Assembly (NCBI RefSeq): GCF_036507355.1
Contig: NZ_AP027877.1
Length of the DNA stretch: 64,000 bases
Strand: one strand, 5' to 3'
Source: Escherichia coli
GTDB taxonomy: Bacteria > Pseudomonadota > Gammaproteobacteria > Enterobacterales > Enterobacteriaceae
Shown: positions 1 to 22,079 of the stretch, piece after piece
Layout of the letters: each line of letters starts with the position of its first letter
Position numbering within the stretch: position 1 is the first letter of the stretch
Made by a program: the position numbers and the translations under genes
Notes under the pieces: model-generated
What the model saw: the letters and a program-made list of their open reading frames with translations, nothing else
What the model was told of the DNA's origin: nothing
Database searches by the model: none

Positions 1-2411
1 TTATCTTTCAGCATCAGCCCCCATTGGCACTGAGTCAGCGCCCGGAGAAATAGTCTGACTAAAATATCATCACTACGTTTGCTTCCGACTTTTAGTTTCA
101 TATCAGAAAACACCGTCCGGCAATAGAGAAAATCACACCAGTCATCCCAGTCAGCCAGGGTCTTCAGTGTATGCGTTTGCCGCCAGTCGTCGAAAAGGGA
201 GCGTTGCTGCAGAGCCTCTTCCATATTATCCCACGGGCGGGAAAACATCAGTAGATGCCCTTCATTCATGGCGGGCCGTACGGGCTGGCGTTTGAAATCG
301 AATTCCAGATTAAGACGGATATCCTGTTCCCGGGATACCAGATCGCTTTCCGAGAGCCACATCTCACGCGTTGATATCAACGTACTTCGGGATAACGTCT
401 GACCGGGTAAACGATTAAGGTAAAGATCTACCATATAGTCGTTATAGTCACTGCGTGGAATATCGGCAGGAGGTTTGACGCCAGCCCTGGCATGAACAAC
501 AGGTTTTCCCTGAATCGCTTTATAGGTTAACTGCCCCCGGGTTTTCATGGCGATAAGCTGGCTGACCTCATGCTTACATGTCAACATTGATGAACCCGGA
601 TCAACAATATCGCACAGCGACTGGAAGCGGGAAGACAGTGGACCGCTCATGTTTATCTTGTCAAGTGGGCAATTTGTCAAAAAACCATCGGTTGTGACGC
701 TGACAACCGATGAATCAGAAGGCAAAGCATTCATGAGTTCCCCGACAACGGCGCGGATAAATCCCGTCACATGCGCAGCAAAGAATGGCTGAGTAACCGA
801 TGATGGTGGGAGGGATCTGTTTAATCCACGGGCAGTATCAAAGGCGGTTTTGGCGCGAAGGCCCTGAGCAAGTTTGCCATAAAGCGAGTTGCCAATTTCT
901 TTCCAGAATTTCTCCTCCAAAGAACCCTTAATATGGCGATTACGGTTCTCACGGACCTGTTGAACAAAGGGAAGAAACACCGATGTTGATTCGCTGTTAT
1001 GTGGGGAGGTGTCACAGATCCAGGGGACGATGATCCCATTATGGATCGTCATCTCTGCCCCGAGCGACAGAGCAAGTTCGATTTCAGGTGCCGTTGCCCA
1101 TGATTCGCCACTTAATGGAAAGAATAACCCATATTGATCGGTCCGAACCGGCAGGCTGGGATAGGGAACTGATTCCGGGAACCGAAATGTGACAAGCGCA
1201 AATCCCATCACATGCCCACAGTAATCGTCCGGATTTTTACTGAGGCGGATGTTTCCGTAATCGGGTATGAGGATATCTAATAGCCCGGTGGTATACGCTC
1301 CAGCCAGATCGTAGTCATACCAGTGATCAGACGGTGTAACCCCCATCATAAAACACTCATTGCGTCCGCCGTGGTAACAGTTGATCGGGAACGTTTCAAA
1401 CAACTCTCTTGAAGGAACACTGGCGGGGTTTTTAATCGTCCGGAATGCCTGTTTCTCCGTGAGCCAGAGTTCACGGGTTTTAATGTGTGTCCCAAGGCAG
1501 ACTTCAGGAGACATATTGTTTTCTTTAAGTGTTTTGGTGAACCGTGAAACTGCCATCGCCCCGATGGTGGCGGGGACACGATCAATCATCAGCTCCCGGG
1601 CGCAAAAATTGCGAACCTGTAAAGCATAACGAACCGCAATCTCGGCATCCCGCAGAGCATAGGCTTCAAACCCTGCTCTGTCGCCCAGAAGATATTCACG
1701 CATATTGGTTATGGAATAAGGTGCAGGAATGGTGAGTTTGGGAAGACCCAGTAATTCACCACATTCAGCCAGACCCATACCCCCGGGAGTGATAAGCAGT
1801 GTATCGATGAAAGCTACGTTACTGCAACGCGGAGGGGAAGTTCGTTTGTCAAACATTATCTGTTCAGTCTTTACGCGACGTTCCTGCTGTTCATCAAAAT
1901 CGATACCGTAACGATTTTTGAAGCTGCTGACAGTACCGCGTATTCCTTTCAGAAGAATTTTGTAGTCTGACCAGAAATTGGCAAAGGAGGCGATATCCGC
2001 ACGAATGAAATGCGCATATATATTAATAATACCGGGCCATTTTGTAATCACACCCGTTTCAAGAAGCGGTGTAATCGTTTGACAGAGAAATTCCTTAAAA
2101 GACAGTCGGGATTTTTTCTGTGAGTCAGGTGGATAGATAATGTTCGATATACCAGTGTTATCGGGTAAGACGACATAACTCTGATATGACAGAATATCAT
2201 TCTGTTGTGTTTCAGGATTGAAAACATATTCGGTATCAAAACCGATATGGAGTGTCAGGTCACTTGAAATAACAGATACTTTTTTTGATGCAGGTGGTAT
2301 CACAGGATAATCATCAAGCGTTTTAGGTCTTTTAAGATTGAGCGCTGGCTCTGAAGTCACGGACTGATACCCCGAGGCGGCAGCGAGGATATCCTGCAAA
2401 TTATGGCTCAT
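1..2411 (-). CDS. Family-B DNA polymerase, piPolB-like (primer-independent PolB); C-terminal part truncated by the window edge
   Basis: Hand translation of the minus strand from ATG at 2411 (MSHNLQDIL...) is open to position 1, about 803 codons. Contains GFDTEYVF (ExoI-like), YDYDLAGAYTTG (motif A-like), KEIGNSLYGKLAQG (motif B), VVSVTTDGF (motif C-like) and AMKTRGQLTY (KTRG). Absent from the ORF track because it has no stop in the window. Confidence 0.8.
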   Translation of the reverse strand, partial: MSHNLQDILAAASGYQSVTSEPALNLKRPKTLDDYPVIPPASKKVSVISSDLTLHIGFDTEYVFNPETQQNDILSYQSYVVLPDNTGISNIIYPPDSQKKSRLSFKEFLCQTITPLLETGVITKWPGIINIYAHFIRADIASFANFWSDYKILLKGIRGTVSSFKNRYGIDFDEQQERRVKTEQIMFDKRTSPPRCSNVAFIDTLLITPGGMGLAECGELLGLPKLTIPAPYSITNMREYLLGDRAGFEAYALRDAEIAVRYALQVRNFCARELMIDRVPATIGAMAVSRFTKTLKENNMSPEVCLGTHIKTRELWLTEKQAFRTIKNPASVPSRELFETFPINCYHGGRNECFMMGVTPSDHWYDYDLAGAYTTGLLDILIPDYGNIRLSKNPDDYCGHVMGFALVTFRFPESVPYPSLPVRTDQYGLFFPLSGESWATAPEIELALSLGAEMTIHNGIIVPWICDTSPHNSESTSVFLPFVQQVRENRNRHIKGSLEEKFWKEIGNSLYGKLAQGLRAKTAFDTARGLNRSLPPSSVTQPFFAAHVTGFIRAVVGELMNALPSDSSVVSVTTDGFLTNCPLDKINMSGPLSSRFQSLCDIVDPGSSMLTCKHEVSQLIAMKTRGQLTYKAIQGKPVVHARAGVKPPADIPRSDYNDYMVDLYLNRLPGQTLSRSTLISTREMWLSESDLVSREQDIRLNLEFDFKRQPVRPAMNEGHLLMFSRPWDNMEEALQQRSLFDDWRQTHTLKTLADWDDWCDFLYCRTVFSDMKLKVGSKRSDDILVRLFLRALTQCQWGLMLKD

Positions 2412-3436: not shown

Positions 3437-4564
3437 TCATTTTGTGTCATAACTTTCTATGACCTGAGAAACCACTGCGTGTGATGTCGCTGCATTGTGA
3501 AAAGCGTAGCGACGGGTCGCCGTGAGTGAATGGTGATTTAGCAGATGGGAAGCGATTGCAATATCCCCGGTCGCCTGTAGTACCCGGGTGGCAAAGGTAC
3601 GGCGCAGGTCATGCATCCGCAGGTTATCAATGTTGGCATCCCGACAAATACGGGCAAAGGTTGCACGCGGATATGCCAGAGGGCGGGCATTGTCGGTTAG
3701 TTGTGGAAAAATGTAAGTTTTGCTGAGCATCAGGTCCTGCTGGCACTGGACAACTGCAATGGCTGGAAGTGCAAGTGGGCAGGTGAAAGGGTGTCCGGAC
3801 TTTGTATCAGGCAGTATGAGTTGATGCATATCCGGGTGCCAGTACTCCCATTTCAGGGTACATACCTCACCAATACGCATCCCCGTATAAAGAGCAAGCA
3901 ATATAGAATCAGCTGCCGGTGTTTGCAGCGCTGTTGCTGCGTTAATAAAGCGCGGGATTTCTGTCGCTGACAGTGTGCGATAGCGAATGTTATTTTCTTT
4001 CAGATAGCGGACATGTGACATCGGGGAATGTGTGATCCATCCAGCACGTACTGCCAGAGAGCATATTTTGGACAATATTGCGAGGATACGGTTTACTGTT
4101 GACGGACGTAATTTTTCCCGTAAGCCAGCAGCATATTGTTCTAGTTCTCCTGCCGTGATGTCGCGAAGTTGCCGCTTGCCCCAGAACGGGCGAACGTAGA
4201 GGTTGAGTTTTGACAACTCTGACTGAGGACTCTTTTTATACAACTGCAAATCCGGTAGCCACAGGTCATTGATGGCCTGTTCCACAGTGAATCGACGGGA
4301 CTGAACAGCAAGGCGATTTTTATCGGCAAGCAGGTTCATCACATGCTGACGGGCATCCTCAATGCAGAGATGAGGGAATTCACCCAGTGTTTCATATATA
4401 CGTTGATTTTTGATGGTGGCGCGAAAGGCCAGCGTGATCCGTTTTGGATATACCAGTGCACGCAGGTTTTGGCACTGAATATCACGGTATTCCTGACAAC
4501 CCGTGAGGGGATGTGGAAGTTGGTGAATTGATTTGTTGCTGAAACGCAGATCCAGAATAGGCAT
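3437..4564 (-). CDS. Tyrosine recombinase / phage-type integrase, 375 aa
   Basis: C-terminal catalytic signature: TGMRIGEV (Arg), MHDLRRTFATR (HxxR), LLNHHSLTATRRYAFH (catalytic Tyr). Confidence 0.9.
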   Translation of the reverse strand: MPILDLRFSNKSIHQLPHPLTGCQEYRDIQCQNLRALVYPKRITLAFRATIKNQRIYETLGEFPHLCIEDARQHVMNLLADKNRLAVQSRRFTVEQAINDLWLPDLQLYKKSPQSELSKLNLYVRPFWGKRQLRDITAGELEQYAAGLREKLRPSTVNRILAILSKICSLAVRAGWITHSPMSHVRYLKENNIRYRTLSATEIPRFINAATALQTPAADSILLALYTGMRIGEVCTLKWEYWHPDMHQLILPDTKSGHPFTCPLALPAIAVVQCQQDLMLSKTYIFPQLTDNARPLAYPRATFARICRDANIDNLRMHDLRRTFATRVLQATGDIAIASHLLNHHSLTATRRYAFHNAATSHAVVSQVIESYDTK

Positions 4565-7778: not shown

Positions 7779-9302
7779 ATGAACGACAAAATCAGTCAGG
7801 ACACGATCAACAAAGCCCTGTGGGCCGCGTGTGATACGTTCCGTGGCACCATCAGTGCTGATACCTATAAAGACTTTATCCTTACCATGCTGTTCCTCAA
7901 GTACATTTCAGATGTCTGGCAGGATCACTACGACGAATATAAAGTGCAATATGGCGATGCGCCGGAACTGATTGAAGCGATGATGGCGAACGAGCGCTTC
8001 GTGTTGCCGAAAAGCGCCAGTTTCTATGCGTTGTACGAGCGACGTCATGAGCCGGGCAACGGTGAGCGTATCGATCAGGCGCTGCATGCGATTGAAGAAG
8101 CCAACGGCACCAAACTGAAAGATGCCGGGAAAAGTGTCTTCCAGGATATTTCGTTTAACACTGACCGTCTGGGCGAAGAAAAACAGAAGAACACCATCCT
8201 GCGTCAGTTGCTGGAAGACTTTGCCGGTGAAGATCTTAACCTGAAGCCAAGCCGTGTCGGTACGCTGGACGTTATCGGTAATGCTTACGAATATCTGATC
8301 AAAAACTTTGCTGCCAGCGGTGGGCAGAAAGCCGGGGAATTCTATACCCCGCCGGAAGTTTCGGACCTGATTGCTGAACTGCTCGATCCGCAACCGGGTG
8401 ATACCATCTGCGATCCGGCCTGTGGTTCGGGTTCATTGTTGATGAAGTGTGGGCGTAAAATTGTCTCCGGGCATGATAGTCGTAACTATGCATTGTTCGG
8501 TCAGGAAGCGATCGGTTCTACGTGGTCGCTGGCGAAAATGAATATGTTCCTGCACGGGGAAGACAACCATAAAATCGAGTGGGGCGATACCATTCGTAAC
8601 CCGAAGCTGCTCGATAAAAATGGCGACCTGATGCTGTTTGATATCGTGACCGCTAACCCACCGTTCAGCCTCGATAAGTGGGGCCATGACGAGGCCGAGA
8701 ACGATAAGTTTGGCCGTTTTCGTCGCGGTGTACCGCCGAAGACTAAAGGAGATTACGCTTTTATCTCGCATATGATCGAAACCCTGAAACCGGGAACTGG
8801 CCGTATGGGCGTAGTTGTGCCACACGGTGTGCTTTTCCGTGGCTCCAGCGAAGGTAAAATTCGCCAGAAACTGATCGACGAAAATTTGCTGGATGCGGTA
8901 ATTGGTCTGCCGGAAAAACTGTTCTACGGTACGGGGATTCCGGCTGCGATTCTGATTTTTAAAAAGCAGAAAGTTGATGACAAGGTGCTGTTTATCGATG
9001 CCAGCCGTGAATTCAAGGCAGGTAAAAACCAGAACCAGCTTAGCGAAGAAAACATTAAGAAAATCGTCAAGACCTACCGTGATGGCGATAACGTCGAGAA
9101 ATACGCCTATCTTGCCAGCCTGAAGGAAATTCAGGACAACGACTATAATCTCAATATCCCGCGCTATGTCGATACCTTTGAAGAAGAGGATGAGATTGAC
9201 CTGCTGGCGGTGCGAGCAGAACGCGAGCAACTGAAGGCGGAATTGGCGAAGCTGGAAACGGAGATGGCTGGATATTTGAAGGAGTTGGGTTATGGCTCGT
9301 GA
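7779..9302 (+). CDS. hsdM: Type I restriction-modification system, DNA methyltransferase subunit M
   Basis: 507 aa; N6-adenine MTase motifs including DIVTANPPF and the AdoMet-binding region DPACGSGSLL. Confidence 0.95.
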   Translation: MNDKISQDTINKALWAACDTFRGTISADTYKDFILTMLFLKYISDVWQDHYDEYKVQYGDAPELIEAMMANERFVLPKSASFYALYERRHEPGNGERIDQALHAIEEANGTKLKDAGKSVFQDISFNTDRLGEEKQKNTILRQLLEDFAGEDLNLKPSRVGTLDVIGNAYEYLIKNFAASGGQKAGEFYTPPEVSDLIAELLDPQPGDTICDPACGSGSLLMKCGRKIVSGHDSRNYALFGQEAIGSTWSLAKMNMFLHGEDNHKIEWGDTIRNPKLLDKNGDLMLFDIVTANPPFSLDKWGHDEAENDKFGRFRRGVPPKTKGDYAFISHMIETLKPGTGRMGVVVPHGVLFRGSSEGKIRQKLIDENLLDAVIGLPEKLFYGTGIPAAILIFKKQKVDDKVLFIDASREFKAGKNQNQLSEENIKKIVKTYRDGDNVEKYAYLASLKEIQDNDYNLNIPRYVDTFEEEDEIDLLAVRAEREQLKAELAKLETEMAGYLKELGYGS

Positions 9303-10566
9303 TTCGCTTTACCCAGTGAGCGTTAAAGCTGGAAAACCGATCCTTGGAATGCTACCTACAGGATGGCAAAAGTTATCATTAGAAAAGTGCTTAAATATAG
9401 AGGCAAGAAAGGCATATATACAAGATAATCAAGAGTATGACTTAGTTACAGTAAAGCGCTCCAGAGGTGGCGTAATAAGACGTGAGCATCTTAAAGGAAA
9501 AGATATCTCCGTAAAAAGTCAATTCTATATTAAAGAAGGCGACTTTCTCATATCAAAACGACAAATTGTGCACGGTGCTTGCGGTCTTGTACCTAAAGAA
9601 CTTTCTGGCTCAATTGTATCGAATGAATATTGTGTGCTTACAGGGAAGTCCGGTTTTTATCTTCCTTATATGGAATTTCTATCGGAGTCTCTATATTTCC
9701 AGCAAACCTGCTTCCACTCTAGCATTGGTGTGCACATAGAGAAAATGATTTTTAAGTTAGATAGTTGGTTTAAGTGGCCATTTAATATCCCCCCACTGTC
9801 TGAACAAAAGAGAATCGTTAAAATCCTGTCAACCTGGGATAAGGCGATTTCGGTGACGGAAAAGCTTCTCACCAACAGTCAGCAGCAGAAAAAAGCCCTG
9901 ATGCAGCAATTGCTTACCGGGAAAAAACGCTTGCTGGATGAGAGGGGGGTGAGGTTTAGTGGGGAGTGGAAGAGAGTAAAACTGGGTGCGATAGCCGATA
10001 TGAACAGTGGAGGTACTCCGAAATCAACGGTTGAAGAGTATTATGGCGGGAATATCCCATGGGTATCTATTTCTGATATGACATCTAATGGAAAGTGGAT
10101 TGCTACAACTGAAAAATATCTGACTGAATTAGGATTGAACAGTTCATCCGCAAGAATATATCCAAAAAACTCGGTTCTTTATGCTATGTATGCTTCTATA
10201 GGTGAATGCAGCATTGCTGCTGTAAATTTAACATCTTCGCAGGCAATCTTGGGTATTAGACCAAAAGATTGTTTAAATTATGAGTTTTTATATTTCTATC
10301 TTACATCATTAAAAGAAAAAATAAAACTGCAAGGCCAGCAAGGTACACAGTCCAACCTAAACGCCGGAATGGTTAAAGAGTTTGAACTAGACTTACCCAG
10401 TATAAGAGAACAACAAAAAATCGCCGCCGTCCTGTCCGTCGCCGATGCCGAAATCTCCACGCTGGAGAAAAAACTCGCCTGCCTGAGAGATGAGAAAAAA
10501 GCCCTGATGCAACAGCTACTGACTGGCAAACGTCGTGTTAAGGTCGATGAGGCGGTTGCCGAATGA
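9292..10566 (+). CDS. hsdS: Type I restriction-modification system, specificity subunit S
   Basis: 424 aa; two AT-rich target-recognition domains separated by the repeated conserved segment KKALMQQLLTGKKRL / KKALMQQLLTGKRRV; start overlaps the hsdM stop by 11 nt. Confidence 0.95.
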   Translation: MARDSLYPVSVKAGKPILGMLPTGWQKLSLEKCLNIEARKAYIQDNQEYDLVTVKRSRGGVIRREHLKGKDISVKSQFYIKEGDFLISKRQIVHGACGLVPKELSGSIVSNEYCVLTGKSGFYLPYMEFLSESLYFQQTCFHSSIGVHIEKMIFKLDSWFKWPFNIPPLSEQKRIVKILSTWDKAISVTEKLLTNSQQQKKALMQQLLTGKKRLLDERGVRFSGEWKRVKLGAIADMNSGGTPKSTVEEYYGGNIPWVSISDMTSNGKWIATTEKYLTELGLNSSSARIYPKNSVLYAMYASIGECSIAAVNLTSSQAILGIRPKDCLNYEFLYFYLTSLKEKIKLQGQQGTQSNLNAGMVKEFELDLPSIREQQKIAAVLSVADAEISTLEKKLACLRDEKKALMQQLLTGKRRVKVDEAVAE

Positions 10567-11246
10567 AACTGACGAAAAGCGGTCCACTGACTGACCGGGA
10601 AATCGACTGGCTGGAAGAAATATTAATGAAGTATGGAATGGATGATTCTGTACTCTGTTTCTCTGAGCTGGATGGATTGCTGACGGCGATTTTATCAGGT
10701 CCAAATATGGTTTCACCCAATATCTGGCTGAGTGCTATTTGGGGAGGAGGCGATTATCATCCGAAATGGTCATCTGAGAGAGAGATGGAGCGTTTTGTCA
10801 GTCTGTGTTTTCAGCATATGAACGATATCGCTGGTTGCCTTTATGACGCCCCTGAACTGTTTGAGCCGATTTTCAATGAGCGTGAGGTAAAGGGGGAAAA
10901 ATATACCATTGTGGAAGAGTGGTGTTTTGGTTATATGAAAGGAAAGTCACTGGATGACTGGTCTGGTCTTCCCGGTGAGTTACGGCCTTCTCTGGAAGTG
11001 ATCGCTCTTCATGGCGTGGAGAAGAATTTTCCTGTACTTGAGAAAATGACCAGAGAGCAGTTTGAGAAAAGTATTTCCCTTATTAAGCCTGCTGCACTGG
11101 CACTTTATCAGTACTGGTTGTCAGTGAGAATGTCAGAGGCATCATCCCGGCCTGTTCCAGTGAAGGGGGCAGAAAACATGCCCGGGCGAAATGACCCGTG
11201 TCCGTGTGGCAGCGGTAAAAAATTTAAGAAGTGCTGTCTGCATTGA
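10563..11246 (+). CDS. YecA/UPF0149-family protein with C-terminal SEC-C metal-binding motif, embedded between hsdS and hsdR
   Basis: 227 aa; C-terminal [20 protein letters not shown]; colinear with chromosomal YecA (20141-20806) along its whole length; ATGA overlap with the hsdS stop. Confidence 0.85.
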   Translation: MKLTKSGPLTDREIDWLEEILMKYGMDDSVLCFSELDGLLTAILSGPNMVSPNIWLSAIWGGGDYHPKWSSEREMERFVSLCFQHMNDIAGCLYDAPELFEPIFNEREVKGEKYTIVEEWCFGYMKGKSLDDWSGLPGELRPSLEVIALHGVEKNFPVLEKMTREQFEKSISLIKPAALALYQYWLSVRMSEASSRPVPVKGAENMPGRNDPCPCGSGKKFKKCCLH

Positions 11247-11295
11247 TGAATCTTCATGTGACCAGTAGCGAGTAGCGCCAGAAAGAAAAGGATTA

Positions 11296-14200
11296 ATGAT
11301 GAACCAGACGTACACGCCTAAATTCCAGGAAGAATACAGCGCCAAAATTCCGGCACTGACGTTACTGACCAGCCTCGGCTGGACGTTTTTATCTCCGAAA
11401 CAGATTATGGATTACCGGGGCTATAAACAGGATGAGGTGGTGCTGCGTCCGGTTCTGCGTGAAGAGCTGTCGAAGCGTTCCTTTATGGCGGGTGGCAAAA
11501 CCTGCCAGTTATCGGAAAAAGCACTGGATAACCTGATATCACAGGTCTGTTCTCCGGCGCTGAATGAAGGGCTGCTCAAAGCCAATGAACGGATGTATAA
11601 CCATCTGCTCTACGGTATCGCCGTCACGGAGTTTGTCGATGGCAAGAAGGTGAACCCCACCATTGCGCTGATCGACTGGGAACATCCGGAAAGTAACCAG
11701 TTCCATTTTACCGAAGAATTTACGGTATTGCGGTCAGGCGGTGTCGAAACCCGCAGGCCGGATATTGTGTGTTTTGTGAATGGTATCCCGCTGGCCGTCA
11801 TTGAAGCGAAAAGCCCGGCGGGTCACGGCAAGAAAGGGCCAACCATTGACGAAGGGATATCCCAGAGTATCCGCAATCAGCTCAACGACGAAATCCCGCA
11901 GCTGTTTGCTTACAGCCAGATATTACTGTCGATTAACGGGCATGACGGGCGCTACGGTACCTGTCATACACCAATGAAATTCTGGGCGGCATGGCGCGAA
12001 GAAGATATTACTTACGCGCAGATGTATGCGCTGCGCAACCATAAGTTATCGACTGAACAAATTCATGCGTTGTTTGATGATCGTCCTTCAGTCGATCTCA
12101 AATGGTATCAACAGTTAATCGATGGGGGGGAACTGGCAGTCAGCGGGCAGGATAAGCTGCTCATCAGTCTGCTTTCACCGGAACGTCTGCTGGAGATGAC
12201 CCGCTTCTTCACCCTGTTTGATAAAAAAACCGGAAAAATTGTTGCCCGCTATCAGCAGGTGTTCGGTATTAAAAGACTGCTGGAACGCATCAGTACCCGC
12301 AGACCAGACGGGGGCAGGGAAGGTGGGGTGATCTGGCATACCACGGGGTCAGGTAAATCTTACACCATGGTATTCCTCAGCAAGGCGCTGATTCTTCATG
12401 ACAGCCTGAAGCAGTGTCGTATTGTGGTGGTGACGGACCGCGTGGACCTTGAAGGGCAGCTCAGCGGCACTTTTGTCTCTGGTGGCGAACTGGCAGGGAA
12501 GGATGATAAGGCCAAAGCGATGGCAACCTCAGGTCAGAAGCTGGCACAGCAGATTGGCTCTGGTAAAGAACGTATAATCTTTACCCTTATCCAGAAATTT
12601 AACTCAGCGACAAAATTGCCTGAATGCGTCAACACCAGCCCCGACATCATCGTTCTGATTGATGAAGGACACCGTAGCCAGGGTGGTGAGAACCATGTGC
12701 GAATGAAACTGGCACTGCCGAACGCCGCCTTTGTGGCATTTACTGGTACGCCATTGCTAAAAGAAGATAAGACCACCAATAAATTCGGGCCGATTGTCCA
12801 CGCTTATACCATGCAGCGAGCGGTAGAAGATAAAGCCGTTACACCTTTGCTGTATGAAGAACGTATTCCCGACCTTGAGGTTAACGATCGGGCAATAGAT
12901 GCCTGGTTTGATCGTATTACCGATGGGTTAAGCGAAGCGCAAAAAGCCGACCTTAAGCGTAAATATGCCCGTAAAGGTGAGGTTTATAGTGCAGATGATC
13001 GCATCCGTCTGATCGCACTCGATATCGCCACGCACTTCTCGAAGAATATTGATGAGGGGCTGAAAGGCCAGCTTGCCTGCGACAGCAAGATTTCCGCCAT
13101 CAAATATAAAAAGTATCTTGATGAAGCCGGGTTGTTTGAGTCAGCAGTAGTTATCAGCCCGCCGGATACCCGGGAAGGGAATACCGAAGTGGATGAAAGC
13201 AAACTGCCGGAAGTGACGAAATGGTGGAAGGATAATGTCGGCACGCAGGATGAGTCTGTGTATACCCGTAATATCATCAGTCGTTTCGATACCGATGAGA
13301 AGCTCAAATTGCTGATAGTCGTTGATAAACTGCTCACCGGGTTTGATGAGCCGAAGAATACCGTGCTGTATATCGACAAGCCGCTTAAGTCCCACAACCT
13401 TATCCAGGCGATTGCGCGGGTGAACCGACTGCATCCACTAAAAAAGTTCGGTCTGCTGATTGATTATCGCGGTATTCTGGCTGAGCTGGACACGACTATC
13501 GGCAAATATCAGGACCTCGCCTCCCGAACTCAGGGCGGATACGATATCAAAGATATTGACGGGCTGTACAGCGCCATGAGCTCTGAATACAAGCGCCTGC
13601 CGCATCTGTATAACCAGCTGTGGGCCATATTTGCCGGTGTTAAAAACAAAAATGATACTGAGCAGTTACGTGCGGTACTGGTGCCTAAAATGGAAGAACG
13701 TGACGGAGAGATGGTCGATATCCATCAGAAAACCCGTGATGATTTCTTCGAGGCGTTAACGGCCTTTGCCGGATGCCTGAAAGTGGCACTGCAGTCCGCT
13801 ACCTTCTTCACCGACAAGAGCTTTACGGAACAAGACCGAAATCTCTATAAAGAAACCGTAAAACAGATGTCCAGCCTGCGCCAGTGGGCGATGCAGGTAA
13901 GTGGAGAGCAGGTCAATTATGACGACTACGCTGAGCAGGTGAAAAAACTGCTGGATAAGCATGTCACCGGCGTTGAGGTTCGTGAACCGGATGGCGTGTA
14001 TGAAGTCGGTAAAATGGGCAAGAGCGAAAAGCCCGAAGAGTGGGACAACAATAAAACCCGCAATGAAACCGACATCATTAAAACCCGCGTGACGAAGATG
14101 ATTGAGCAGGAATTGCGTGATGACCCGTATGCTCAGGAGGCATTTTCAAAACTCCTGCGTATGGCTATCGAAGAGGCTGAAAAACTGTTTGACCATCCGC

Positions 14201-14583
14201 TGAAACAGTACCTTTTGTTCCGTGAATTTGAAGAACAGGTTGAAGCCCGTAAGCTCAGCGATATCCCGGATGCACTGGCGGTAAACAAGCATGCTCAGGC
14301 GTATTACGGTGTATTTAAAAAAGAGCTACCTGAGGTTTTTGCGGTAAACGACGTTCAGGTGCAGGATAAGTGGACCAAGCTGGCTTTTGAAGTGGACAAC
14401 ATTATCGTCAAAGCGGTGGCAGAAAACTCCCTGAACCCCCAGGACATTGAGAAAGTCGTTAAGACAAGTCTGCTACCACTGCTGTTTACGGCCTGCCGGG
14501 AAATTGGTGCCGGAATGAATCAGGTTAACCGTATTGTGGAAACCATCATCCAGATACTGCGCGTTGGTTTGATGAAATCATGA
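11296..14583 (+). CDS. hsdR: Type I restriction enzyme, restriction (helicase-nuclease) subunit R
   Basis: 1095 aa; Walker A TGSGKSYTM and DEAH-box LIDEGHRSQ; typical HsdR N-terminus. Confidence 0.95.
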   Translation: MMNQTYTPKFQEEYSAKIPALTLLTSLGWTFLSPKQIMDYRGYKQDEVVLRPVLREELSKRSFMAGGKTCQLSEKALDNLISQVCSPALNEGLLKANERMYNHLLYGIAVTEFVDGKKVNPTIALIDWEHPESNQFHFTEEFTVLRSGGVETRRPDIVCFVNGIPLAVIEAKSPAGHGKKGPTIDEGISQSIRNQLNDEIPQLFAYSQILLSINGHDGRYGTCHTPMKFWAAWREEDITYAQMYALRNHKLSTEQIHALFDDRPSVDLKWYQQLIDGGELAVSGQDKLLISLLSPERLLEMTRFFTLFDKKTGKIVARYQQVFGIKRLLERISTRRPDGGREGGVIWHTTGSGKSYTMVFLSKALILHDSLKQCRIVVVTDRVDLEGQLSGTFVSGGELAGKDDKAKAMATSGQKLAQQIGSGKERIIFTLIQKFNSATKLPECVNTSPDIIVLIDEGHRSQGGENHVRMKLALPNAAFVAFTGTPLLKEDKTTNKFGPIVHAYTMQRAVEDKAVTPLLYEERIPDLEVNDRAIDAWFDRITDGLSEAQKADLKRKYARKGEVYSADDRIRLIALDIATHFSKNIDEGLKGQLACDSKISAIKYKKYLDEAGLFESAVVISPPDTREGNTEVDESKLPEVTKWWKDNVGTQDESVYTRNIISRFDTDEKLKLLIVVDKLLTGFDEPKNTVLYIDKPLKSHNLIQAIARVNRLHPLKKFGLLIDYRGILAELDTTIGKYQDLASRTQGGYDIKDIDGLYSAMSSEYKRLPHLYNQLWAIFAGVKNKNDTEQLRAVLVPKMEERDGEMVDIHQKTRDDFFEALTAFAGCLKVALQSATFFTDKSFTEQDRNLYKETVKQMSSLRQWAMQVSGEQVNYDDYAEQVKKLLDKHVTGVEVREPDGVYEVGKMGKSEKPEEWDNNKTRNETDIIKTRVTKMIEQELRDDPYAQEAFSKLLRMAIEEAEKLFDHPLKQYLLFREFEEQVEARKLSDIPDALAVNKHAQAYYGVFKKELPEVFAVNDVQVQDKWTKLAFEVDNIIVKAVAENSLNPQDIEKVVKTSLLPLLFTACREIGAGMNQVNRIVETIIQILRVGLMKS

Positions 14584-15335
14584 GTGAAAAAGAATCGCCA
14601 TCAATGAAAGCGTTACGCATTGTCTATGGTGATGATGTCATCACCGTACAGTGTGTTCCGCGTCAGGTCGTAAAGGGCAGGGTGCTCATCAAGGTTTATC
14701 CGGACTGCCGGGTTGTGGCCTCTGTACCGCCTGAAACACCGGAGCACGAGGTATTGTCTGCGCTGAAAAAAAGAGGGCGCTGGATATACCAGCAACTGCG
14801 TGATTTCAGGGAGCAACAGACACACATTGTTCCGCGTCAGTATGTCAGCGGAGAAAGCCATTATTATCTCGGTAAGCAATATCAGTTGAAAGTGACAGAA
14901 GACGCTACTGTGCCGCAACGAGTGAAAATGTTGCGTGGGCGTCTGGAAGTGACTGTCAGACACAAATCGGCAGAAAAGATTAAAGCCTTGCTGGCTGAAT
15001 GGTATCGGGAACGTGCCAGAGATGTTTTTCAGCGCAGGCTTGATTTACTGATTCCGCAGACCCTTTGGGTCAGTGAGCGTCCTCCGATACGTCTGCGGGC
15101 GATGCAAACGCAATGGGGCAACTGTTCAGCAAAAGGCTGTCTGACCCTGAATCCATGGCTGGTTAAGGCATCCTCAGAATGTATCGATTATGTTTTGCTA
15201 CATGAGTTATGCCATGTGGCTGAGCACAACCACAGCGAGGAGTTTTACCGTCTGATGGGGCAGGTTATGCCTGGGTGGGAAAAGGTCAAGAAACGACTGG
15301 ATGGGATGGCTGGGATGTTGTTGGCTGATATGTAA
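14580..15335 (+). CDS. DUF45 / YgjP-like (M48-type) zinc metallopeptidase, translationally coupled to hsdR
   Basis: 251 aa; HEXXH motif HELCHVAEHNH near the C-terminus; ATGA overlap with the hsdR stop. Confidence 0.8.
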   Translation: MSEKESPSMKALRIVYGDDVITVQCVPRQVVKGRVLIKVYPDCRVVASVPPETPEHEVLSALKKRGRWIYQQLRDFREQQTHIVPRQYVSGESHYYLGKQYQLKVTEDATVPQRVKMLRGRLEVTVRHKSAEKIKALLAEWYRERARDVFQRRLDLLIPQTLWVSERPPIRLRAMQTQWGNCSAKGCLTLNPWLVKASSECIDYVLLHELCHVAEHNHSEEFYRLMGQVMPGWEKVKKRLDGMAGMLLADM

Positions 15336-15393
15336 CTTATCAATATGAGTTCTTAAGGGTTTGGTCAGTCTCGTTAATGTAGGGAGTATAATA

Positions 15394-17232
15394 ATGAGTA
15401 AGTTAGATAATAAAATTGAAGCACGCCATCGTAATTTGTTTGATGTTCTAAATGCGCAAAAATATACCGTTGATTACTTTCAGCGCGAGTATAGCTGGGG
15501 TGAGAAACATATTGAAGAGTTGGTTACAGACTTAACATCTGCGTTTCTCAATGAATACACCGTCGGTGATTCTCGGGAGCAGGGTGAAAACTACAATAAT
15601 TATTACTTAGGACCATTTGTTGTGAGTAGTAAAGATGGGAAACGGAGTATTATTGATGGTCAGCAACGACTGACTTCATTAACTTTATTTCTAATTTACC
15701 TCCATAACCTTCAGAAAGAACTTAAATATGAAGAGAAAATAGAATCAATGATTTTCTCCGAGTTACGTGGCAGCAAATCATTCAATATAGTAGTTGAAGA
15801 CAGAATACCTTGCATGGAAGCATTGTTTAATTTTGGTAGCTATAGTTTAGTTGATGGGGATGATGAGTCAACCCATAACATGGTGGAGAGATATCAGAAT
15901 ATCACAGATGCTTTTCCTGATGAATTAAAAGGTCAGGCTTTTCCTTTTTTTATCGACTGGCTTAAGTATAACGTTATTATGGTTGAGATAGTTGCCTATT
16001 CAGATGAAAACGCATATACCATCTTTGAGACTATGAATGACCGAGGATTAAATCTTACTCCGTCCGAAATGCTTAAAGGTTTTTTACTTTCACGCTTTCA
16101 TCAGGGAGATAAACGCCAAAAGGTAAATGAACTCTGGAAAAAAGCGATGATGGATTTAAAAAACTATGATAAAGATGAAGACCAACGTTTTTTCCAGTCA
16201 TGGTTGCGTGCTCAATATGCTGATACAATACGCCCGGGTAAAGCTGGTTCAAAAAATGAAGACTTTGAAAAAATAGGTACGCGTTTTCATAGCTGGGTTA
16301 GAGATAATCTTCAGGCGGTGGGATTGGACCCAGATAATGGTGAGACATTCGAACGATTTATACAAAAAAACTTTTTGTTTTATTTGAATGCCTATACACA
16401 AATACTGAATGCTGAGAGAGCATTAACGCACCAACTGGAATATGTATTTTATATCCACCATTGGGGTATTGCACCTACTTTAAGTTTCCCTTTGATGTTG
16501 GCTCCATTAAATGTAGGTGACAGTCCTGATGCTGTGATAGCCAAAATAAACCTGGTGGCGCGCTATATTGAAACATTTGTTGTTCGTCGTTCTGTTAATT
16601 TCCGAAAATTCTCTGCCAGTTCTATTCGTTACACAATGTACAGTCTTGTTAAAGAAATTCGTGGTAAAAGTATTGAAGAATTAAAAGATTTGTTATCTAA
16701 GAAGTTATCCGAAATGCCAGATACTTTTGCAGGAATGGAAGAGTTTCGTCTCCATGGTCAAAACTATCGTTTTGTGAAGTTTTTGCTTTCTCGTATAACT
16801 GCGTGGGTTGAGCAGCAAGCCGGAATGAGTACAACCTTCATTACATATTATCAGCCAGAACACGGTAAGCCATTTGAAGTCGAGCATATTTGGGCCGATA
16901 AATATGAACGTTACTCTGATGAGTTTGAACAAGAGCACGAATTTAACAATTACAGAAATCGCTTAGGTGATTTGGTTTTATTACCTAGAGGCTCAAACCA
17001 GTCATATGGTGATTTGTGTTACGATCAAAAGCAACCTCATTACATCAAAGAGAATCTCCTGGCTAAATCGTTATGCCCATTGGCATATATGAATAACCCT
17101 AATTTCAATCAGTTGAGAAATGTATTCGGATTGCCTTTCAAACCACATGATTCATTTAAAAAACAAGATGTCGATGAACGACAGTCTTTGTATAAAATAA
17201 TTTGTGAGAATATTTGGGACCATAATTTATAG
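15394..17232 (+). CDS. DUF262 (ParB-like, DGQQR) / DUF1524 (His-Me finger) protein, GmrSD-like type IV restriction candidate
   Basis: Motif IIDGQQRLTSL in the N-terminal half; C-terminal EVEHIWADKY...NRLGDLVLLPRGSNQS. I place the start at ATG 15394 with SD agggag 7 nt upstream; the track uses TTG at 15361. Confidence 0.75.
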   Translation: MSKLDNKIEARHRNLFDVLNAQKYTVDYFQREYSWGEKHIEELVTDLTSAFLNEYTVGDSREQGENYNNYYLGPFVVSSKDGKRSIIDGQQRLTSLTLFLIYLHNLQKELKYEEKIESMIFSELRGSKSFNIVVEDRIPCMEALFNFGSYSLVDGDDESTHNMVERYQNITDAFPDELKGQAFPFFIDWLKYNVIMVEIVAYSDENAYTIFETMNDRGLNLTPSEMLKGFLLSRFHQGDKRQKVNELWKKAMMDLKNYDKDEDQRFFQSWLRAQYADTIRPGKAGSKNEDFEKIGTRFHSWVRDNLQAVGLDPDNGETFERFIQKNFLFYLNAYTQILNAERALTHQLEYVFYIHHWGIAPTLSFPLMLAPLNVGDSPDAVIAKINLVARYIETFVVRRSVNFRKFSASSIRYTMYSLVKEIRGKSIEELKDLLSKKLSEMPDTFAGMEEFRLHGQNYRFVKFLLSRITAWVEQQAGMSTTFITYYQPEHGKPFEVEHIWADKYERYSDEFEQEHEFNNYRNRLGDLVLLPRGSNQSYGDLCYDQKQPHYIKENLLAKSLCPLAYMNNPNFNQLRNVFGLPFKPHDSFKKQDVDERQSLYKIICENIWDHNL

Positions 17233-17290
17233 CAAAGTTAGGGTGTTAATTAATCTGTAATGGCATCATGATTTTTAAAAGGAGGTTGAA

Positions 17291-18418
17291 TTGCGTTCTG
17301 AAACGTTTTTTGTCAAATTTATTGAACAACTGAAAGGTATTTCGGTTGAGGATGATGTTGAATTCAATTTTTTTGAATTGGGTGGTTCCGGATATCTCGA
17401 AAATCCAACTACGGATTTGATGGCTTTGTTTATGGGAGCCCAGAAAATGGTGCCGCCATGGTTGCTCAAAGCATTGCTATGTTGCCTGGATGATTCCCTC
17501 GATGTTGATGAAATTGATTTCACTTCTCTGGAGCTAATGAGAGAGGCCCGAACAGAAGATGGGAAATATATTGATATTCTTATCAGACATGATGAATTCA
17601 TTATAGGTATTGAGCATAAAGTTCTGGCTGATACATATAATCCTTTTCCCAGCTATGTAAGTCTCATTGATAGTTACGGCGGCAACAATCAAAAACTATT
17701 TCGCTGTATATTAAAGCCTGACGGTAACAGCGCTAAAGGCGTAGACGGTTGGCAACTGATCAATTATTCACTGCTGCTGGAAACCGCCATTCGACGTCTG
17801 GGGTTGGAGATGATGAATCAAGAGTTCAGCAAGTGGACTGTTTTTTATCAGGAGTTTTTAAGTCATCTTAAAAAATTGAGTGAGGTTAGTATGGATAAGG
17901 TATCTGATAAAAATGTGGAGTTTGTCACTGAAAATTTCTCAGCTTTGATAAAATCGGTTCAACTGCTGGAAATGTACCAAAATGCTATCACCGAGGAAGC
18001 TAAATCGGTTGTCTCAGAGGTATTGCCTGATATTCATATTGCAACAGGTATTAATAACTGGAAGGGTTACTATAAAGCAATTCATCTGATGCCGGGATGC
18101 TGGGGGCAAGGTAAAACAGGAATTACGTTAGTTTATCGCCCTTCAGAGGATGGACGAGATGAAGCTGAGTTCTACGTATATGGATGGATACATTCAGATG
18201 ATTACCCTGAAGTTAATGCACTAAAAGAAGAAATAAGAGTTGCTTTAAGTGCTGGAGATTTCATTCCAACAGCTAGCCCTGAGGACTATGAAGTATCAAT
18301 TACTGGGAAGGGGAAAGTGCTTGAACTGAGTTTTTGGGGGAATACGAGAAGCAAAAAAGATGCACTGGTTCTTCTTAAGGATATGACTAAGTGGATGGAC
18401 TCAAAAATAAGAACATAA
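17291..18418 (+). CDS. Hypothetical protein, 375 aa, with PD-(D/E)XK-like motif
   Basis: TTG start preceded by strong SD aaaaggagg; YIDILIRHDEFIIGIEHKV resembles a D...E-x-K nuclease core; remainder has no recognisable domain. Confidence 0.5.
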   Translation: MRSETFFVKFIEQLKGISVEDDVEFNFFELGGSGYLENPTTDLMALFMGAQKMVPPWLLKALLCCLDDSLDVDEIDFTSLELMREARTEDGKYIDILIRHDEFIIGIEHKVLADTYNPFPSYVSLIDSYGGNNQKLFRCILKPDGNSAKGVDGWQLINYSLLLETAIRRLGLEMMNQEFSKWTVFYQEFLSHLKKLSEVSMDKVSDKNVEFVTENFSALIKSVQLLEMYQNAITEEAKSVVSEVLPDIHIATGINNWKGYYKAIHLMPGCWGQGKTGITLVYRPSEDGRDEAEFYVYGWIHSDDYPEVNALKEEIRVALSAGDFIPTASPEDYEVSITGKGKVLELSFWGNTRSKKDALVLLKDMTKWMDSKIRT

Positions 18419-18522
18419 AGTAATATGACTGAGTGATGACGATCTTTTTTAAATTGTGGATTATTAGGCTGGTAATTGAAGCGCCGAATAGACAGATATT
18501 GGAATAAAAGGAGAATATTCAA

Positions 18523-19704
18523 ATGATTTATCAGTGTGATACTTGCAGTAGAACGACTTTTGAGGTTAATTGTCCCTGGTGTAGTGGAGTTTCGCCTGTA
18601 AAAACGTCTGCATGGGGTTCAGCATCATCGACCGCACAAGCAATAGGCATACAACGTATGACACCATTGAATCCATCGTTTTATCCCGAATTTCAGTATC
18701 GTTCAAAGGGTGTTCTAAAAGATCTATTTGGGAAAAAGAAAGAGCAAACTCAGCTTAATCAATTGCTTGAAAATGTTCTCAAAAAATACTCCAGTTTAAA
18801 AGATCCATATTTTACTAACTTCATTTACACTTCCAGATTCTCACATAATAATAAATCGGAAGCAGATTACTCAACAGATAATGGTACATACTCCGAATTA
18901 CAACTTTTCCGTGAGGTGTTGGTCAGAAAAGGGTTCAATGAGCTTGAGCAGTTACCTGAGCTATTAGATAAATTACTCCTTACCACGTCATTTAACGCTC
19001 TTTATTATGGTTTCGCTAAGGAAGTTAAACGGCATATTAAATCCACACTTACTGAATCCTTGAAGTCATGGATTGAGGAAGCGGGTACCACTTTTAGGGC
19101 AGATCTTTCATTGTTTCTATTCTATATATGGAGCAATAAAATAGAGTTCTCATCAGTAGAGTTCAATGAAAAAGCGGAGGCTACGCCTGGTGTTCCTTTA
19201 GTTTCATTTGATGAAGTTAAAAAATACTTAGCTGTGTGCGAACATATTTATTTTGATATTCTGGTTGATAGATTAGCTACACGGCTCGAACATTTTAACC
19301 CTAACAAATTCGTCACCATGTATTTAGTTGATGCAATGGACGGTTTCCAGTTTGAAGATTTCCTTGTGGAAGTATTCCAGACTATGGGCTATGACGTCAA
19401 AGAAACCAAGAGAACGCAAGATCAGGGGGCAGATCTCTTCGTCACTCGATTTGGTAAGGATATGGTTATTCAGGCGAAAAATTATTCTGGTTCTGTAGGT
19501 AACTCGGCGGTGCAGCAGGTGATCTCTGCTAAAACATTCTATGGTTGTGATGAGGCGATGGTTGTGACTAATTCCTACTTCACACGCTCTGCCAAAGAAT
19601 TAGCTGAATCAGCCTTGGTACGTTTGATCGACAGGGATGAACTGCAAAAGTATCTGGATGATTACAATCAGAAGATAATTGAAGATTTCCAGTCAAACTC
19701 GTAA
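18523..19704 (+). CDS. Restriction endonuclease-like protein: N-terminal Cys4 zinc-ribbon plus C-terminal Mrr catalytic domain
   Basis: N-terminus CDTCSRTTFEVNCPWC; C-terminus GADLFVT...VIQAKNYSGSV...VVTNSYFTRSAKELA...LIDRDEL, colinear with the E. coli Mrr catalytic region as I recall it (D...Q-x-K). Confidence 0.75.
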   Translation: MIYQCDTCSRTTFEVNCPWCSGVSPVKTSAWGSASSTAQAIGIQRMTPLNPSFYPEFQYRSKGVLKDLFGKKKEQTQLNQLLENVLKKYSSLKDPYFTNFIYTSRFSHNNKSEADYSTDNGTYSELQLFREVLVRKGFNELEQLPELLDKLLLTTSFNALYYGFAKEVKRHIKSTLTESLKSWIEEAGTTFRADLSLFLFYIWSNKIEFSSVEFNEKAEATPGVPLVSFDEVKKYLAVCEHIYFDILVDRLATRLEHFNPNKFVTMYLVDAMDGFQFEDFLVEVFQTMGYDVKETKRTQDQGADLFVTRFGKDMVIQAKNYSGSVGNSAVQQVISAKTFYGCDEAMVVTNSYFTRSAKELAESALVRLIDRDELQKYLDDYNQKIIEDFQSNS

Positions 19705-19889
19705 CTTTGCAGTCATATAGATATAGCAAAGGACAGGTAGGCCTCCGTGAGAGGGGGACTTACCTGTGCAGATTCTGTGCTCAAAGTTATCCAAGTCTAT
19801 CTATTTACTGCCAATTACAGTAAAATGAGTAAGCAATTACAGCAAAGTTTCGCAATGCACTGCTATGTAACTCATTGATCCTGCGTAGA

Positions 19890-19945
19890 ATTTAAAATCC
19901 CTCGGCGTTCGCGCTGTGCGGGTTCAAGTCCCGCTCCGGGTACCA
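19890..19945 (+). repeat. 3'-terminal 56 nt of tRNA-Leu (leuZ-type; anticodon loop to CCA), the att-site remnant at the right boundary of the element
   Basis: ATTTAAAATCCCTCGGCGTTCGCGCTGTGCGGGTTCAAGTCCCGCTCCGGGTACCA matches the 3' part of tRNA-Leu(UAA) as I recall it; the 5' acceptor and D-arm are absent upstream, so this is not a complete tRNA gene. Confidence 0.8.
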
Positions 19946-19988
19946 TGGGAAAGATAAGAATAAAATCAAAGCAATAAGCAGTGTCGTG

Positions 19989-20013
19989 AAACCACCTTCG
20001 GGTGGTTTTTTTG
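19989..20013 (+). terminator. Rho-independent terminator (aaccacc ttcg ggtggtt + T-run) downstream of the tRNA remnant
   Basis: Perfect 7-bp stem, 4-nt loop, run of 7 T. Confidence 0.65.
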
Positions 20014-20140
20014 TGCCTGCAACTTGTCGTTACACCCTCCTTAATTTTTAATCACCGGCAAAGCCACTCAAAAAGTATCTCTGATACGGACCGGCATGTA
20101 AGATAGGTGTTGGCGAGTTGAGATCCACAAGGAAAAGCGT

Positions 20141-20806
20141 ATGAAAACGGGACCGTTAAACGAAAGTGAGTTGGAATGGCTGGACGATATTCTGACCAAA
20201 TACAACACTGACCACGCCATCCTTGATGTGGCGGAGCTGGACGGTTTATTGACGGCGGTGTTGAGTTCTCCGCAAGAGATTGAACCGGCACAGTGGCTGG
20301 TTGCCGTGTGGGGTGGGGCTGACTATGTGCCGCGCTGGGCGTCAGAGAAAGAGATGACGCGCTTTATGAACCTGGCTTTTCAACATATGGCCGATACCGC
20401 AGAGCGTCTGAACGAATTCCCGGAGCAGTTTGAGCCGTTATTCGGCTTGCGAGAAGTTGATGGCAGCGAGCTGACGATTGTTGAGGAGTGGTGCTTTGGC
20501 TATATGCGGGGCGTGGCACTTTCTGACTGGTCAACATTGCCCGATTCGTTAAAACCAGCGCTGGAGGCGATAGCGCTGCACGGTACTGAGGAAAACTTCG
20601 AGCGGGTAGAGAAGATGTCGCCAGAAGCGTTTGAAGAGAGCGTAGATGCCATTCGACTGGCGGCGCTTGATCTACATGCGTACTGGATGGCGCATCCGCA
20701 GGAAAAAGCTGTTCAGCAACCGATCATAGCAGAAGAGAAACCGGGGCGTAACGATCCTTGCCCGTGCGGTAGTGGTAAGAAATTTAAGCAGTGCTGCCTG
20801 CATTAA
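20141..20806 (+). CDS. yecA: UPF0149-family protein YecA with SEC-C motif (chromosomal copy)
   Basis: 221 aa; ends [20 protein letters not shown]; position between tRNA-Leu and tyrP as in K-12. Confidence 0.9.
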
Positions 20807-20867: not shown

Positions 20868-22079
20868 TCACCCCACTTCTGGTAACAACCCTGCCGCAAT
20901 CAAAAATTGCACGCCAATCACAGCAATACCACAGAGAAACACCACCACCAGCGCCGGACGACCACCTTTGACCCGGTAACCCGCTTGAGGATTGTGCTTT
21001 CTGCTTTGCCAGGTCAACAGCGAAGGGATAATCAATGCCAGTACCGCCAGCGCCACACCGGCGTAACCCAGCGCCATCACAAATCCTCGTGGATAAAACA
21101 GTGCAAACGCCAACGGCGGCAGAAAGGTAATTGCACCAGTTTGCAATCTTCCACCAACGGTATTTGAACGCTGAAACAAATCAGCCAGATAATCAAATAA
21201 GCCTAACGCAACGCCGAGAAATGACGTGGCGAGGGCTAAATCAGCAAATAAATGCACTGCCAGCTCAACATGCGGAGAGGCCACCATTTCGCGTAACGCC
21301 TGTAACAGCCCGTTTAATCCGGCATGATTAGCCAGCAATCCCATAAAGGTTGTTGAATCAATGCTGCCAAGCGTCGCCACCTGCCAGAAAATATATGCCA
21401 CCAGGGGGATCGCACTACCGGTTATAAACACCCAGCGTAGCTTACGAATGTTGCCATCCATATAGCTGACAATACTCGGCACGCTACCGTGAAAACCAAA
21501 CGACGTAAAAATCACCGGGATTGCAGACAGTGCCAGCCCCTGTTGCAACGGCAGGGTTAAAAGATTCACTTTGTGAATATGCGGTAGCAGCAATACCAGC
21601 ATCACCACCAGAAAAATAATTTTGGCGCTGAACAGAAAACGGTTAAATAAATCGACCAGCGATGTTCCAACACAAACCACGCCACCGGCAACAAAAGTGA
21701 ACAACAGCACGCCAGCGGTTGCCGACATTGAAATACCTGTCCAGTCGCTGATGCTGGAGGCCAACAATTCACCGGCACCGCTGATGTATGCCGCAGTCAG
21801 AGCATACATTAAGAACATCATACTGAAGCCCGTCAGCCATTGACCGTAGCGTCCCAGATAGCGTTTTGCCAGCGTGCCCAGACCGGTATCTGCCGGAACA
21901 TGCTGGTACACCTCCAGCAGTAATAGCGCCGTGTAGCACATCAACGCCCAAAGCCCAATCAACAAGATTAACGTAACGCTAAAACCAACACCGGCCGCAG
22001 CCAGCGGCATTGCCAGCATGCCTGCGCCAATTGTGGTTCCCGCCACGATAAAAACACTTCCCAGGGTTCTGTTTTTCAC
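20868..22079 (-). CDS. tyrP: Tyrosine-specific transport protein
   Basis: 403-aa polytopic membrane protein; sequence and synteny match TyrP. Confidence 0.9.

Follow-up and report, generated by a model that had tools for sequence, protein, structure and literature searches.

The 64,000-nucleotide stretch of Escherichia coli DNA analysed here (contig NZ_AP027877.1 of assembly GCF_036507355.1; hereafter the window) contains two genes of the YecA/AscA family 8.9 kb apart. One is the housekeeping yecA (ascA). The other, which we name yecA', lies between hsdS and hsdR of a type I restriction-modification (RM) operon on an integrated island. The adjacency of the two genes is almost certainly a by-product of the tRNA gene that serves as the integration site: yecA occupies a fixed position in Enterobacteriaceae and yecA' belongs to a separate lineage that resides in hsd operons. 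Sequence comparison places yecA' in an old branch of the YecA family, distinct from the housekeeping gene and about as old as the split between the Enterobacteriaceae and the family of Pantoea. Combined with a role for the YecA' protein as a holdase that would serve the restriction enzyme, this gives an explanation of the locus that, taken whole, we consider likely.

The pair was first noticed in a sequence-only reading of the window, which described two YecA genes about 9 kb apart with the same architecture, a near-identical C-terminal SEC-C motif and, by eye, identity at half or more of their positions. The observation is confirmed. Both open reading frames (Table 1) encode a UPF0149 domain followed by a SEC-C tail. 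That reading had allowed that the island copy might prove unrelated to UPF0149 on alignment; the Pfam UPF0149 model (PF03695) matches YecA' at 1.8e-30 over residues 15-185 and YecA at 2.3e-36. The Pfam SEC-C model matches both at about 2e-10 (for YecA', 2.3e-10 over residues 209-225), TIGR02292 matches YecA' at 6e-37, and the NCBIfam YecA equivalog NF007704 gives 357 bits for YecA' and 435 bits for YecA, with a cut-off of 149. End to end, the two proteins are identical at 127 of 223 positions by BLASTP (57%, with 74% positives; E 4e-99). The likeness is greatest in the tail, which ends in [K/Q]CCLH and has 19 of its final 20 residues in common.

Structural comparison agrees with the profile searches. 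The AlphaFold2 model of YecA' (predicted local distance difference test, pLDDT, 93.9) has the UPF0149 structures 4gyt and 1izm as its best matches in the PDB, and the SEC-C tail resembles the metal-binding peptides of SecA and YchJ found there. The metal-binding cysteines C213, C215, C224 and C225 are invariant across 91 sequences. Positions conserved in both the yecA' clade and chromosomal YecA number 75, against 11 fixed clade-specific differences. No domain of YecA' other than UPF0149 and SEC-C was found in the Pfam and NCBIfam profile searches, the fold being the helical UPF0149 domain, and neither profile nor structure searches revealed a recognisable effector, nuclease, ATPase or other toxic domain.

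The position of the island accounts for the proximity of the genes. In island-free relatives the tRNA Gly-Cys-Leu cluster (glyW-cysT-leuZ) ends about 190 bp upstream of yecA. The window contains a single partial copy of tRNA-Leu, at 19890-19945, with the native leuZ terminator directly after it, and homology to island-free E. coli genomes starts exactly at 19890. All window DNA to the left of 19890 has therefore been integrated into leuZ. Since leuZ lies about 0.2 kb upstream of yecA, anything that integrates there ends beside yecA. The gene at 20141-20806 carries the yecA label in every fetched RefSeq E. coli locus that reaches it and is followed by the convergent tyrP, then by yecH, ftnA and yecR; its place between tRNA-Leu and tyrP identifies it as the housekeeping orthologue. 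The same test applied to yecA' gives the opposite answer, as it sits between hsdS and hsdR and falls in a clade of its own.

Other E. coli genomes repeat the arrangement. All ten yecA' loci with informative flanks sit between leuZ and yecA, next to a variety of elements (pipolin, P2-like prophage, other integrases). Of the records ranked by a 25-kb query, those as far as about rank 365 have yecA' within 13 kb of the yecA-tyrP core, so that, by this rank-based lower bound, the large majority of the 424 chromosomal copies lie at the leuZ site. A census of 'places per genome' with the same 25-kb query was dropped, as collinearity with the window ends at about 32,969 in the majority of genomes. 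The sequence-only reading had asked whether elements at this site always carry the paralogue. They do not: yecA' is present in 419 of 5,426 complete E. coli genomes (7.7%), and the leuZ hotspot is reported to be occupied in 21% (PMC11551731).

Phage records touch the same site. The YecA matches in a phage collection are exclusively of the chromosomal type and lie at record ends (about 4-690; ON470596, ON470627, ON470604, ON470624 and NC_049344). Judging by the position of the matches, the ends of prophages at leuZ appear to have been placed within host DNA in those records.

What remains constant around yecA' is the type I operon. In an evenly spaced sample of 60 E. coli matches, 59 overlap an annotated hsdS and the remaining one is split by insertion sequence (IS) elements. 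A matching hsdR family occurs in 552 E. coli genomes; one of those with hsdR and without yecA' was inspected and has lost hsdM, hsdS and yecA' beside IS1. In the window the ATG of yecA' and the stop codon of hsdS share bases (ATGA). Every intact locus checked has such an overlap of stop and start, with ATGA or TGATG in seven of seven aligned loci and also in Morganella. In all of the more than 100 sampled loci yecA' lay within a type I operon.

The association extends to plasmids and to other genera. About 346 PLSDB plasmid records, mostly conjugative Klebsiella plasmids, carry yecA' at an amino-acid identity of at least 80%. Sampled plasmid matches of at least 85% identity with an annotated gene under the match all fall on the hsdS-yecA' junction. 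One protein, WP_001459731.1, is identical in plasmid p2 of K. pneumoniae PittNDM01 and in an E. coli chromosomal island. The order hsdM-hsdS-yecA'-hsdR-ygjP is found also in Citrobacter freundii, Franconibacter, Intestinirhabdus, Enterobacter, Buttiauxella and a Klebsiella michiganensis plasmid contig, and yecA' comes directly after hsdS in all eight species-representative loci and in four metagenome or genome contigs. Neither yecA nor tyrP occurs within the 8-10 kb flanks of the non-E. coli or plasmid copies. The sequence-only reading had called yecA' a xenologue of the gene beside which the island landed and had left open whether this reflects coincidence or interaction. The relatedness stands; a special significance is not supported, given the integration site and the plasmid and other-genus copies that have no yecA nearby. 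Nothing in the data points to interplay between yecA' and yecA, such as interference through the tail that they share, which in YecA binds SecB and ribosomes.

The two genes have long been separate. Their DNA is 63.6% identical, the longest exact run in common is 12 nt and out of register, and synonymous sites between them are saturated (dS); yecA' is therefore no recent duplicate of yecA. The GC content of third codon positions (GC3) also differs, at 0.46 for yecA' and 0.59 for yecA. In a search of 5.8 billion proteins, hsd-linked matches of YecA' span 73-97% identity and are followed by a gap, below which come chromosomal YecA proteins at no more than 60% from Pantoea, Erwinia, Rouxiella, Cronobacter, Klebsiella, Salmonella and others. 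The gap recurs in a scan of one genome per species, where eight loci lie at 74-84% and all others at no more than 59%. A neighbour-joining tree recovers the yecA' clade as monophyletic with 100% bootstrap support. It groups with the YecA of Enterobacterales (55-57% identity) and not with that of other Gammaproteobacteria (43%), the nearest relatives outside Enterobacterales being those of Pseudohongiella and Pseudidiomarina (43-52%). Branching among Enterobacterales families is not fixed by this tree, in which chromosomal YecA is monophyletic to the exclusion of yecA' in only 7.5% of bootstraps. The earlier claim that the island copy is not a recent duplication of its neighbour is thus borne out, and the phylogeny that the sequence-only reading had called for rules out a recent local duplicate. 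There is no sign of accelerated evolution in yecA', whose distance to the outgroups is no greater than that of chromosomal YecA. Within the yecA' clade dN/dS is 0.08-0.21, a range that indicates purifying selection on the lineage.

Individual alleles point to recombination, and perhaps decay, within the clade. The allele of E. coli TUM1881 (L010:16001-16684) is a recombinant, its first ~95 residues resembling the O145-type allele and the remainder the window allele, and this accounts for a class of matches at 92% identity. The identical protein is encoded on an IncFIB plasmid of K. pneumoniae (L101:9001-9684). Recombination between the yecA copies as the origin of deletions or chimaeras was rejected, the longest common run being 12 nt and the one truncated E. 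coli match being due to an IS insertion. In E. coli O145:H28 RM13514 (L009:16001-16684) the otherwise invariant CPC of the metal-binding motif is replaced by CQC, and both hsdM and hsdR have become pseudogenes through an internal stop and an insertion of IS600. These lesions suggest that the RM13514 cassette may be decaying.

The space between hsdS and hsdR is an exchangeable cargo slot that holds yecA', a cold-shock-domain (CSD) protein or GmrSD. Next after yecA' comes the CSD protein in roughly half of the E. coli loci and among five of the eight other species. It is also found alone, in Erwinia and in a Vibrio conjugative element, which identifies it as independent cargo and not as a partner of yecA'. 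Unlike other cargo, yecA' is always first in the slot, is always coupled to hsdS and is seen nowhere else. That yecA' never occurs outside type I operons, where the CSD protein does, argues for its dependence on the restriction enzyme.

In E. coli, the metal-binding tail of YecA/AscA binds SecB and ribosomes, and the protein binds other proteins promiscuously and suppresses their aggregation (preprint, bioRxiv 10.1101/2020.07.21.215244). The near-complete set of conserved YecA residues together with the SecA-type tail would lead one to expect a holdase. By analogy we propose that YecA' was recruited to the service of the type I enzyme with the biochemistry of YecA retained. It would be a holdase tethered to ribosomes and SecB and made in step with HsdS, rather than a stand-alone effector. 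Such a protein could help the restriction enzyme to fold and assemble, or set the timing of these steps, for instance by holding nascent HsdS or HsdR soluble. We infer both the binding partners and the effect on restriction, and offer the holdase tentatively, at a little under an even chance. The stronger formulation, that yecA' is the first chaperone-type accessory subunit of any RM system and controls when and how the type I enzyme assembles, or else guards the enzyme against phage anti-restriction proteins, is possible and rather doubtful. If the proposal holds, a housekeeping secretion chaperone has been recruited into bacterial immunity, and control of assembly may be of greatest value when a plasmid or island has newly arrived in a cell.

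Several observations weigh against this explanation. (i) yecA' is optional for the hsd operon: an E. coli plasmid with the same hsd family (hsdR at 88% DNA identity) has hsdS, 20 bp and then hsdR without yecA', and in a relative from Vibrio vulnificus a 614-aa CSD protein takes the place of yecA'. (ii) It goes with more than one set of enzyme subunits, as in Morganella and Providencia the hsdS before it is paired with an HsdM of only 42% identity to that of the window, and a GmrSD gene comes after yecA'. (iii) Between loci, yecA' DNA is about 82% identical, and that of hsdM and hsdR on either side about 92-94% (window 7779-15335 against L013, L017 and L008). This difference of about 10 points implies that the region from hsdS to the cargo slot holds deeper allelic lineages than the rest of the operon, and the higher divergence fits a looser or different constraint on yecA'. 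(iv) For YecA itself, the source for a chaperone role is a preprint. (v) The E. coli chromosomal-position figures come from a sample and a rank-based lower bound and not from a full count.

One alternative is that yecA' is an anti-phage gene in its own right, carried in the cargo slot ('guilt-by-embedding') and acting, for instance, through attachment to a phage protein that it would neutralise, much as the UPF0149 protein YgfB deals with the antiterminator AlpA (PMC9998450). The slot does hold clearly independent cargo (the CSD protein and GmrSD), the hsd operon exists elsewhere as a unit without yecA', and the PADLOC family PDC-S12 matches the gene at 2.4e-99. However, the PDC-S12 model scores the housekeeping yecA higher (365 against 330 bits), which makes a 'defence' label at the level of the family weak, and YecA' has no recognisable effector domain. 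Independent systems would usually also be met outside type I operons, where yecA' was never found, and its constant first place and translational coupling to hsdS speak against free cargo as well. We regard an independent anti-phage gene as improbable.

A guard function of the PrrC type has been considered too. YecA' would then be silenced by the type I enzyme, be freed when a phage anti-restriction protein disables that enzyme, and harm the infected cell by taking up ribosomes or SecB with its metal-binding tail. In the EcoprrI locus (hsdM-hsdS-prrC-hsdR) the slot is filled by prrC, which encodes an ATPase-anticodon nuclease; Payne et al. name PrrC as a system met almost only within type I RM systems (bioRxiv 10.1101/2024.01.29.577857). 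The shared slot, the confinement to type I operons and a tail that matches the ribosome- and SecB-binding tail of YecA at 19 of 20 residues are all in keeping with a guard. YecA' nonetheless has no nuclease, ATPase or other toxic domain and has kept the conserved core of a housekeeping chaperone, and overexpressed YecA is not reported to be lethal; a guard of this kind is quite improbable.

That the adjacency is itself meaningful, either because yecA was captured from the neighbouring chromosome in an ancestral host or because the island copy competes with or replaces host YecA, is very improbable: the E. coli cassette is almost always at leuZ, so that the genes co-occur in about 8% of genomes, yecA' falls inside Enterobacterales-type YecA diversity (the 7.5% of bootstraps given above) and the two metal-binding tails are nearly identical, but on plasmids and in other genera the cassette is plentiful where no yecA lies nearby, the leuZ-yecA adjacency occurs in Enterobacteriaceae loci and in no Pantoea locus while yecA' is about as old as that family split, the genes have no DNA in common for recombination, and the island has left the 204-bp region upstream of yecA intact.

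Table 1 Features of the window around the two YecA genes.
Feature	Position	Strand	Evidence and remarks
Probable piPolB of pipolin-type island	1..2411	-	~803-codon open frame, runs off window start; PolB-like motifs by eye: DTEY, NSLYGKLAQ, VTTDGF
Tyrosine recombinase (integrase)	3437..4564	-	Pfam Phage_integrase 1.6e-21; same RefSeq label in strain HKUOPY1
hsdM, type I methyltransferase subunit	7779..9302	+	Pfam HsdM_N and N6_Mtase (4e-107); PADLOC MTase_I
hsdS, type I specificity subunit	9292..10566	+	Pfam Methylase_S, two stretches; PADLOC Specificity_I 1e-213
yecA'	10563..11246	+	227 aa; UPF0149 and SEC-C; YecA/AscA-family gene inside hsd operon
hsdR, type I restriction subunit	11296..14583	+	Pfam HSDR_N, ResIII, SWI2_SNF2, T1R_D3-like; PADLOC REase_I 1363 bits
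YgjP-like (M48/SprT-like) metallopeptidase	14580..15335	+	Pfam YgjP-like 3e-58; start overlaps hsdR stop
GmrSD/DUF262-type restriction enzyme (PADLOC HEC-06-like)	15361..17232	+	Pfam GmrSD_N, GmrSD_C; HEC-06 4.7e-41
PD-(D/E)XK nuclease family protein (PADLOC PDC-S26)	17291..18418	+	Pfam PDDEXK_4; PDC-S26 1e-50
Mrr-like restriction endonuclease	18523..19704	+	Pfam Mrr_cat 7e-30
attR, right island boundary: 3' 56 nt of tRNA-Leu (leuZ)	19890..19945	+	Compared with complete tRNA-Leu of strain TUM1881
Housekeeping yecA (ascA)	20141..20806	+	221 aa; NF007704 equivalog; RefSeq yecA label
tyrP	20868..22079	-	Core gene convergent with yecA; open reading frame and RefSeq annotation of syntenic loci

The island is probably of the pipolin type (Table 1). 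Orphan genes accompany the tyrosine recombinase in the integrated DNA. The frame at the start of the window, a probable primer-independent family-B DNA polymerase (piPolB), is 69% identical to the one that Enterobacter and Buttiauxella have beside the same integrase and hsd genes; the ~803-codon frame has no Pfam, NCBIfam or PDB match. Pipolins insert at the 3' end of a tRNA gene and have att-like repeats; in enterobacterial pipolins the attachment site is the tRNA-Leu between pgsA and yecA, and Type 1 RM and PDC-S12 are listed among frequent cargo of Enterobacterales pipolins (PMC11551731). The right-end partial tRNA-Leu of the window corresponds to this site, the left end lying beyond the window. 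Gene content and site thus fit published pipolins, the polymerase call being made from by-eye motifs and the literature. The ygjP-like gene is constant with this hsd family, including in operons without yecA'. The MZA defence system, suggested by the annotation of one match, is absent from the window. Most E. coli genomes cease to match the window collinearly at about 32,969, downstream of otsA, which suggests from the alignments another variable site or a rearrangement there.

More distant YecA-family genes (25-33% identity) are common on plasmids of Xanthomonas, Pseudomonas and Burkholderia, and do not lie beside hsd genes. Of two plasmid examples (L102, Xanthomonas citri pXcB; L103, Pseudomonas syringae), one is near a zeta toxin and ParA, and the other immediately precedes a HipA-family kinase gene and a DUF3037 gene. 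The fusions to DUF6933 and DUF1186 among remote YecA homologues were uninformative on restriction.

As a feature of the genome, the locus is ordinary: a tRNA-integrating defence island beside the core gene that flanks its attachment site. An hsd-embedded YecA is common, being present in some 8% of the complete genomes of E. coli and on hundreds of conjugative plasmids from Klebsiella, which makes it a frequent accessory gene of type I systems. The hsdS-hsdR slot of this operon family is accordingly a place to look for new defence genes. What is already known of yecA' is the RefSeq annotation 'YecA family protein' and the PADLOC-DB 2.0 candidate PDC-S12. We found no functional study of YecA, UPF0149 or SEC-C in restriction or defence, no reported anti-phage activity of PDC-S12 in the literature searched, and no paper that separates the embedded lineage from the housekeeping yecA. 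Between them, the guilt-by-embedding preprint and the pipolin paper, supplements included, mention PDC-S12, YecA or UPF0149 only once, in the latter.

Comparison with known systems places yecA' closest to E. coli YecA/AscA, with which it shares the two-domain architecture, length, predicted fold, 57% identity and 75 conserved positions. It differs in being a separate lineage of lower GC3, coupled to hsdS in mobile type I operons and never in the leuZ-yecA-tyrP position. YgfB of Pseudomonas aeruginosa shares the N-terminal fold family (1izm is the H. influenzae YgfB) and acts by binding AlpA (PMC9998450), but it lacks the metal-binding tail, is chromosomal, is unrelated to restriction systems and has low sequence similarity. 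With prrC of the EcoprrI locus, yecA' has in common an extra gene in the hsdS-hsdR slot, in the same orientation and essentially in that setting only; unlike PrrC, YecA' is chaperone-like and has neither the ABC-ATPase nor the anticodon-nuclease domain.

The PDC families were derived from genes that lie inside BREX, DISARM and type I systems, as 145 untested candidates found by 'guilt-by-embedding', and their profiles were built from clusters of all RefSeq homologues (Payne et al., bioRxiv 10.1101/2024.01.29.577857). As a member of PDC-S12, yecA' matches the profile (2.4e-99, 330 bits) and is embedded between hsdS and hsdR in the same orientation. The model differs from the lineage described here in mixing hsd-embedded genes with the housekeeping yecA, and the higher score of the latter (365 bits) fits the building of profiles from all RefSeq homologues. 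At this locus PADLOC would report two PDC-S12 matches 9 kb apart. Judged by these scores, PDC-S12 calls in Enterobacterales may largely be housekeeping yecA.

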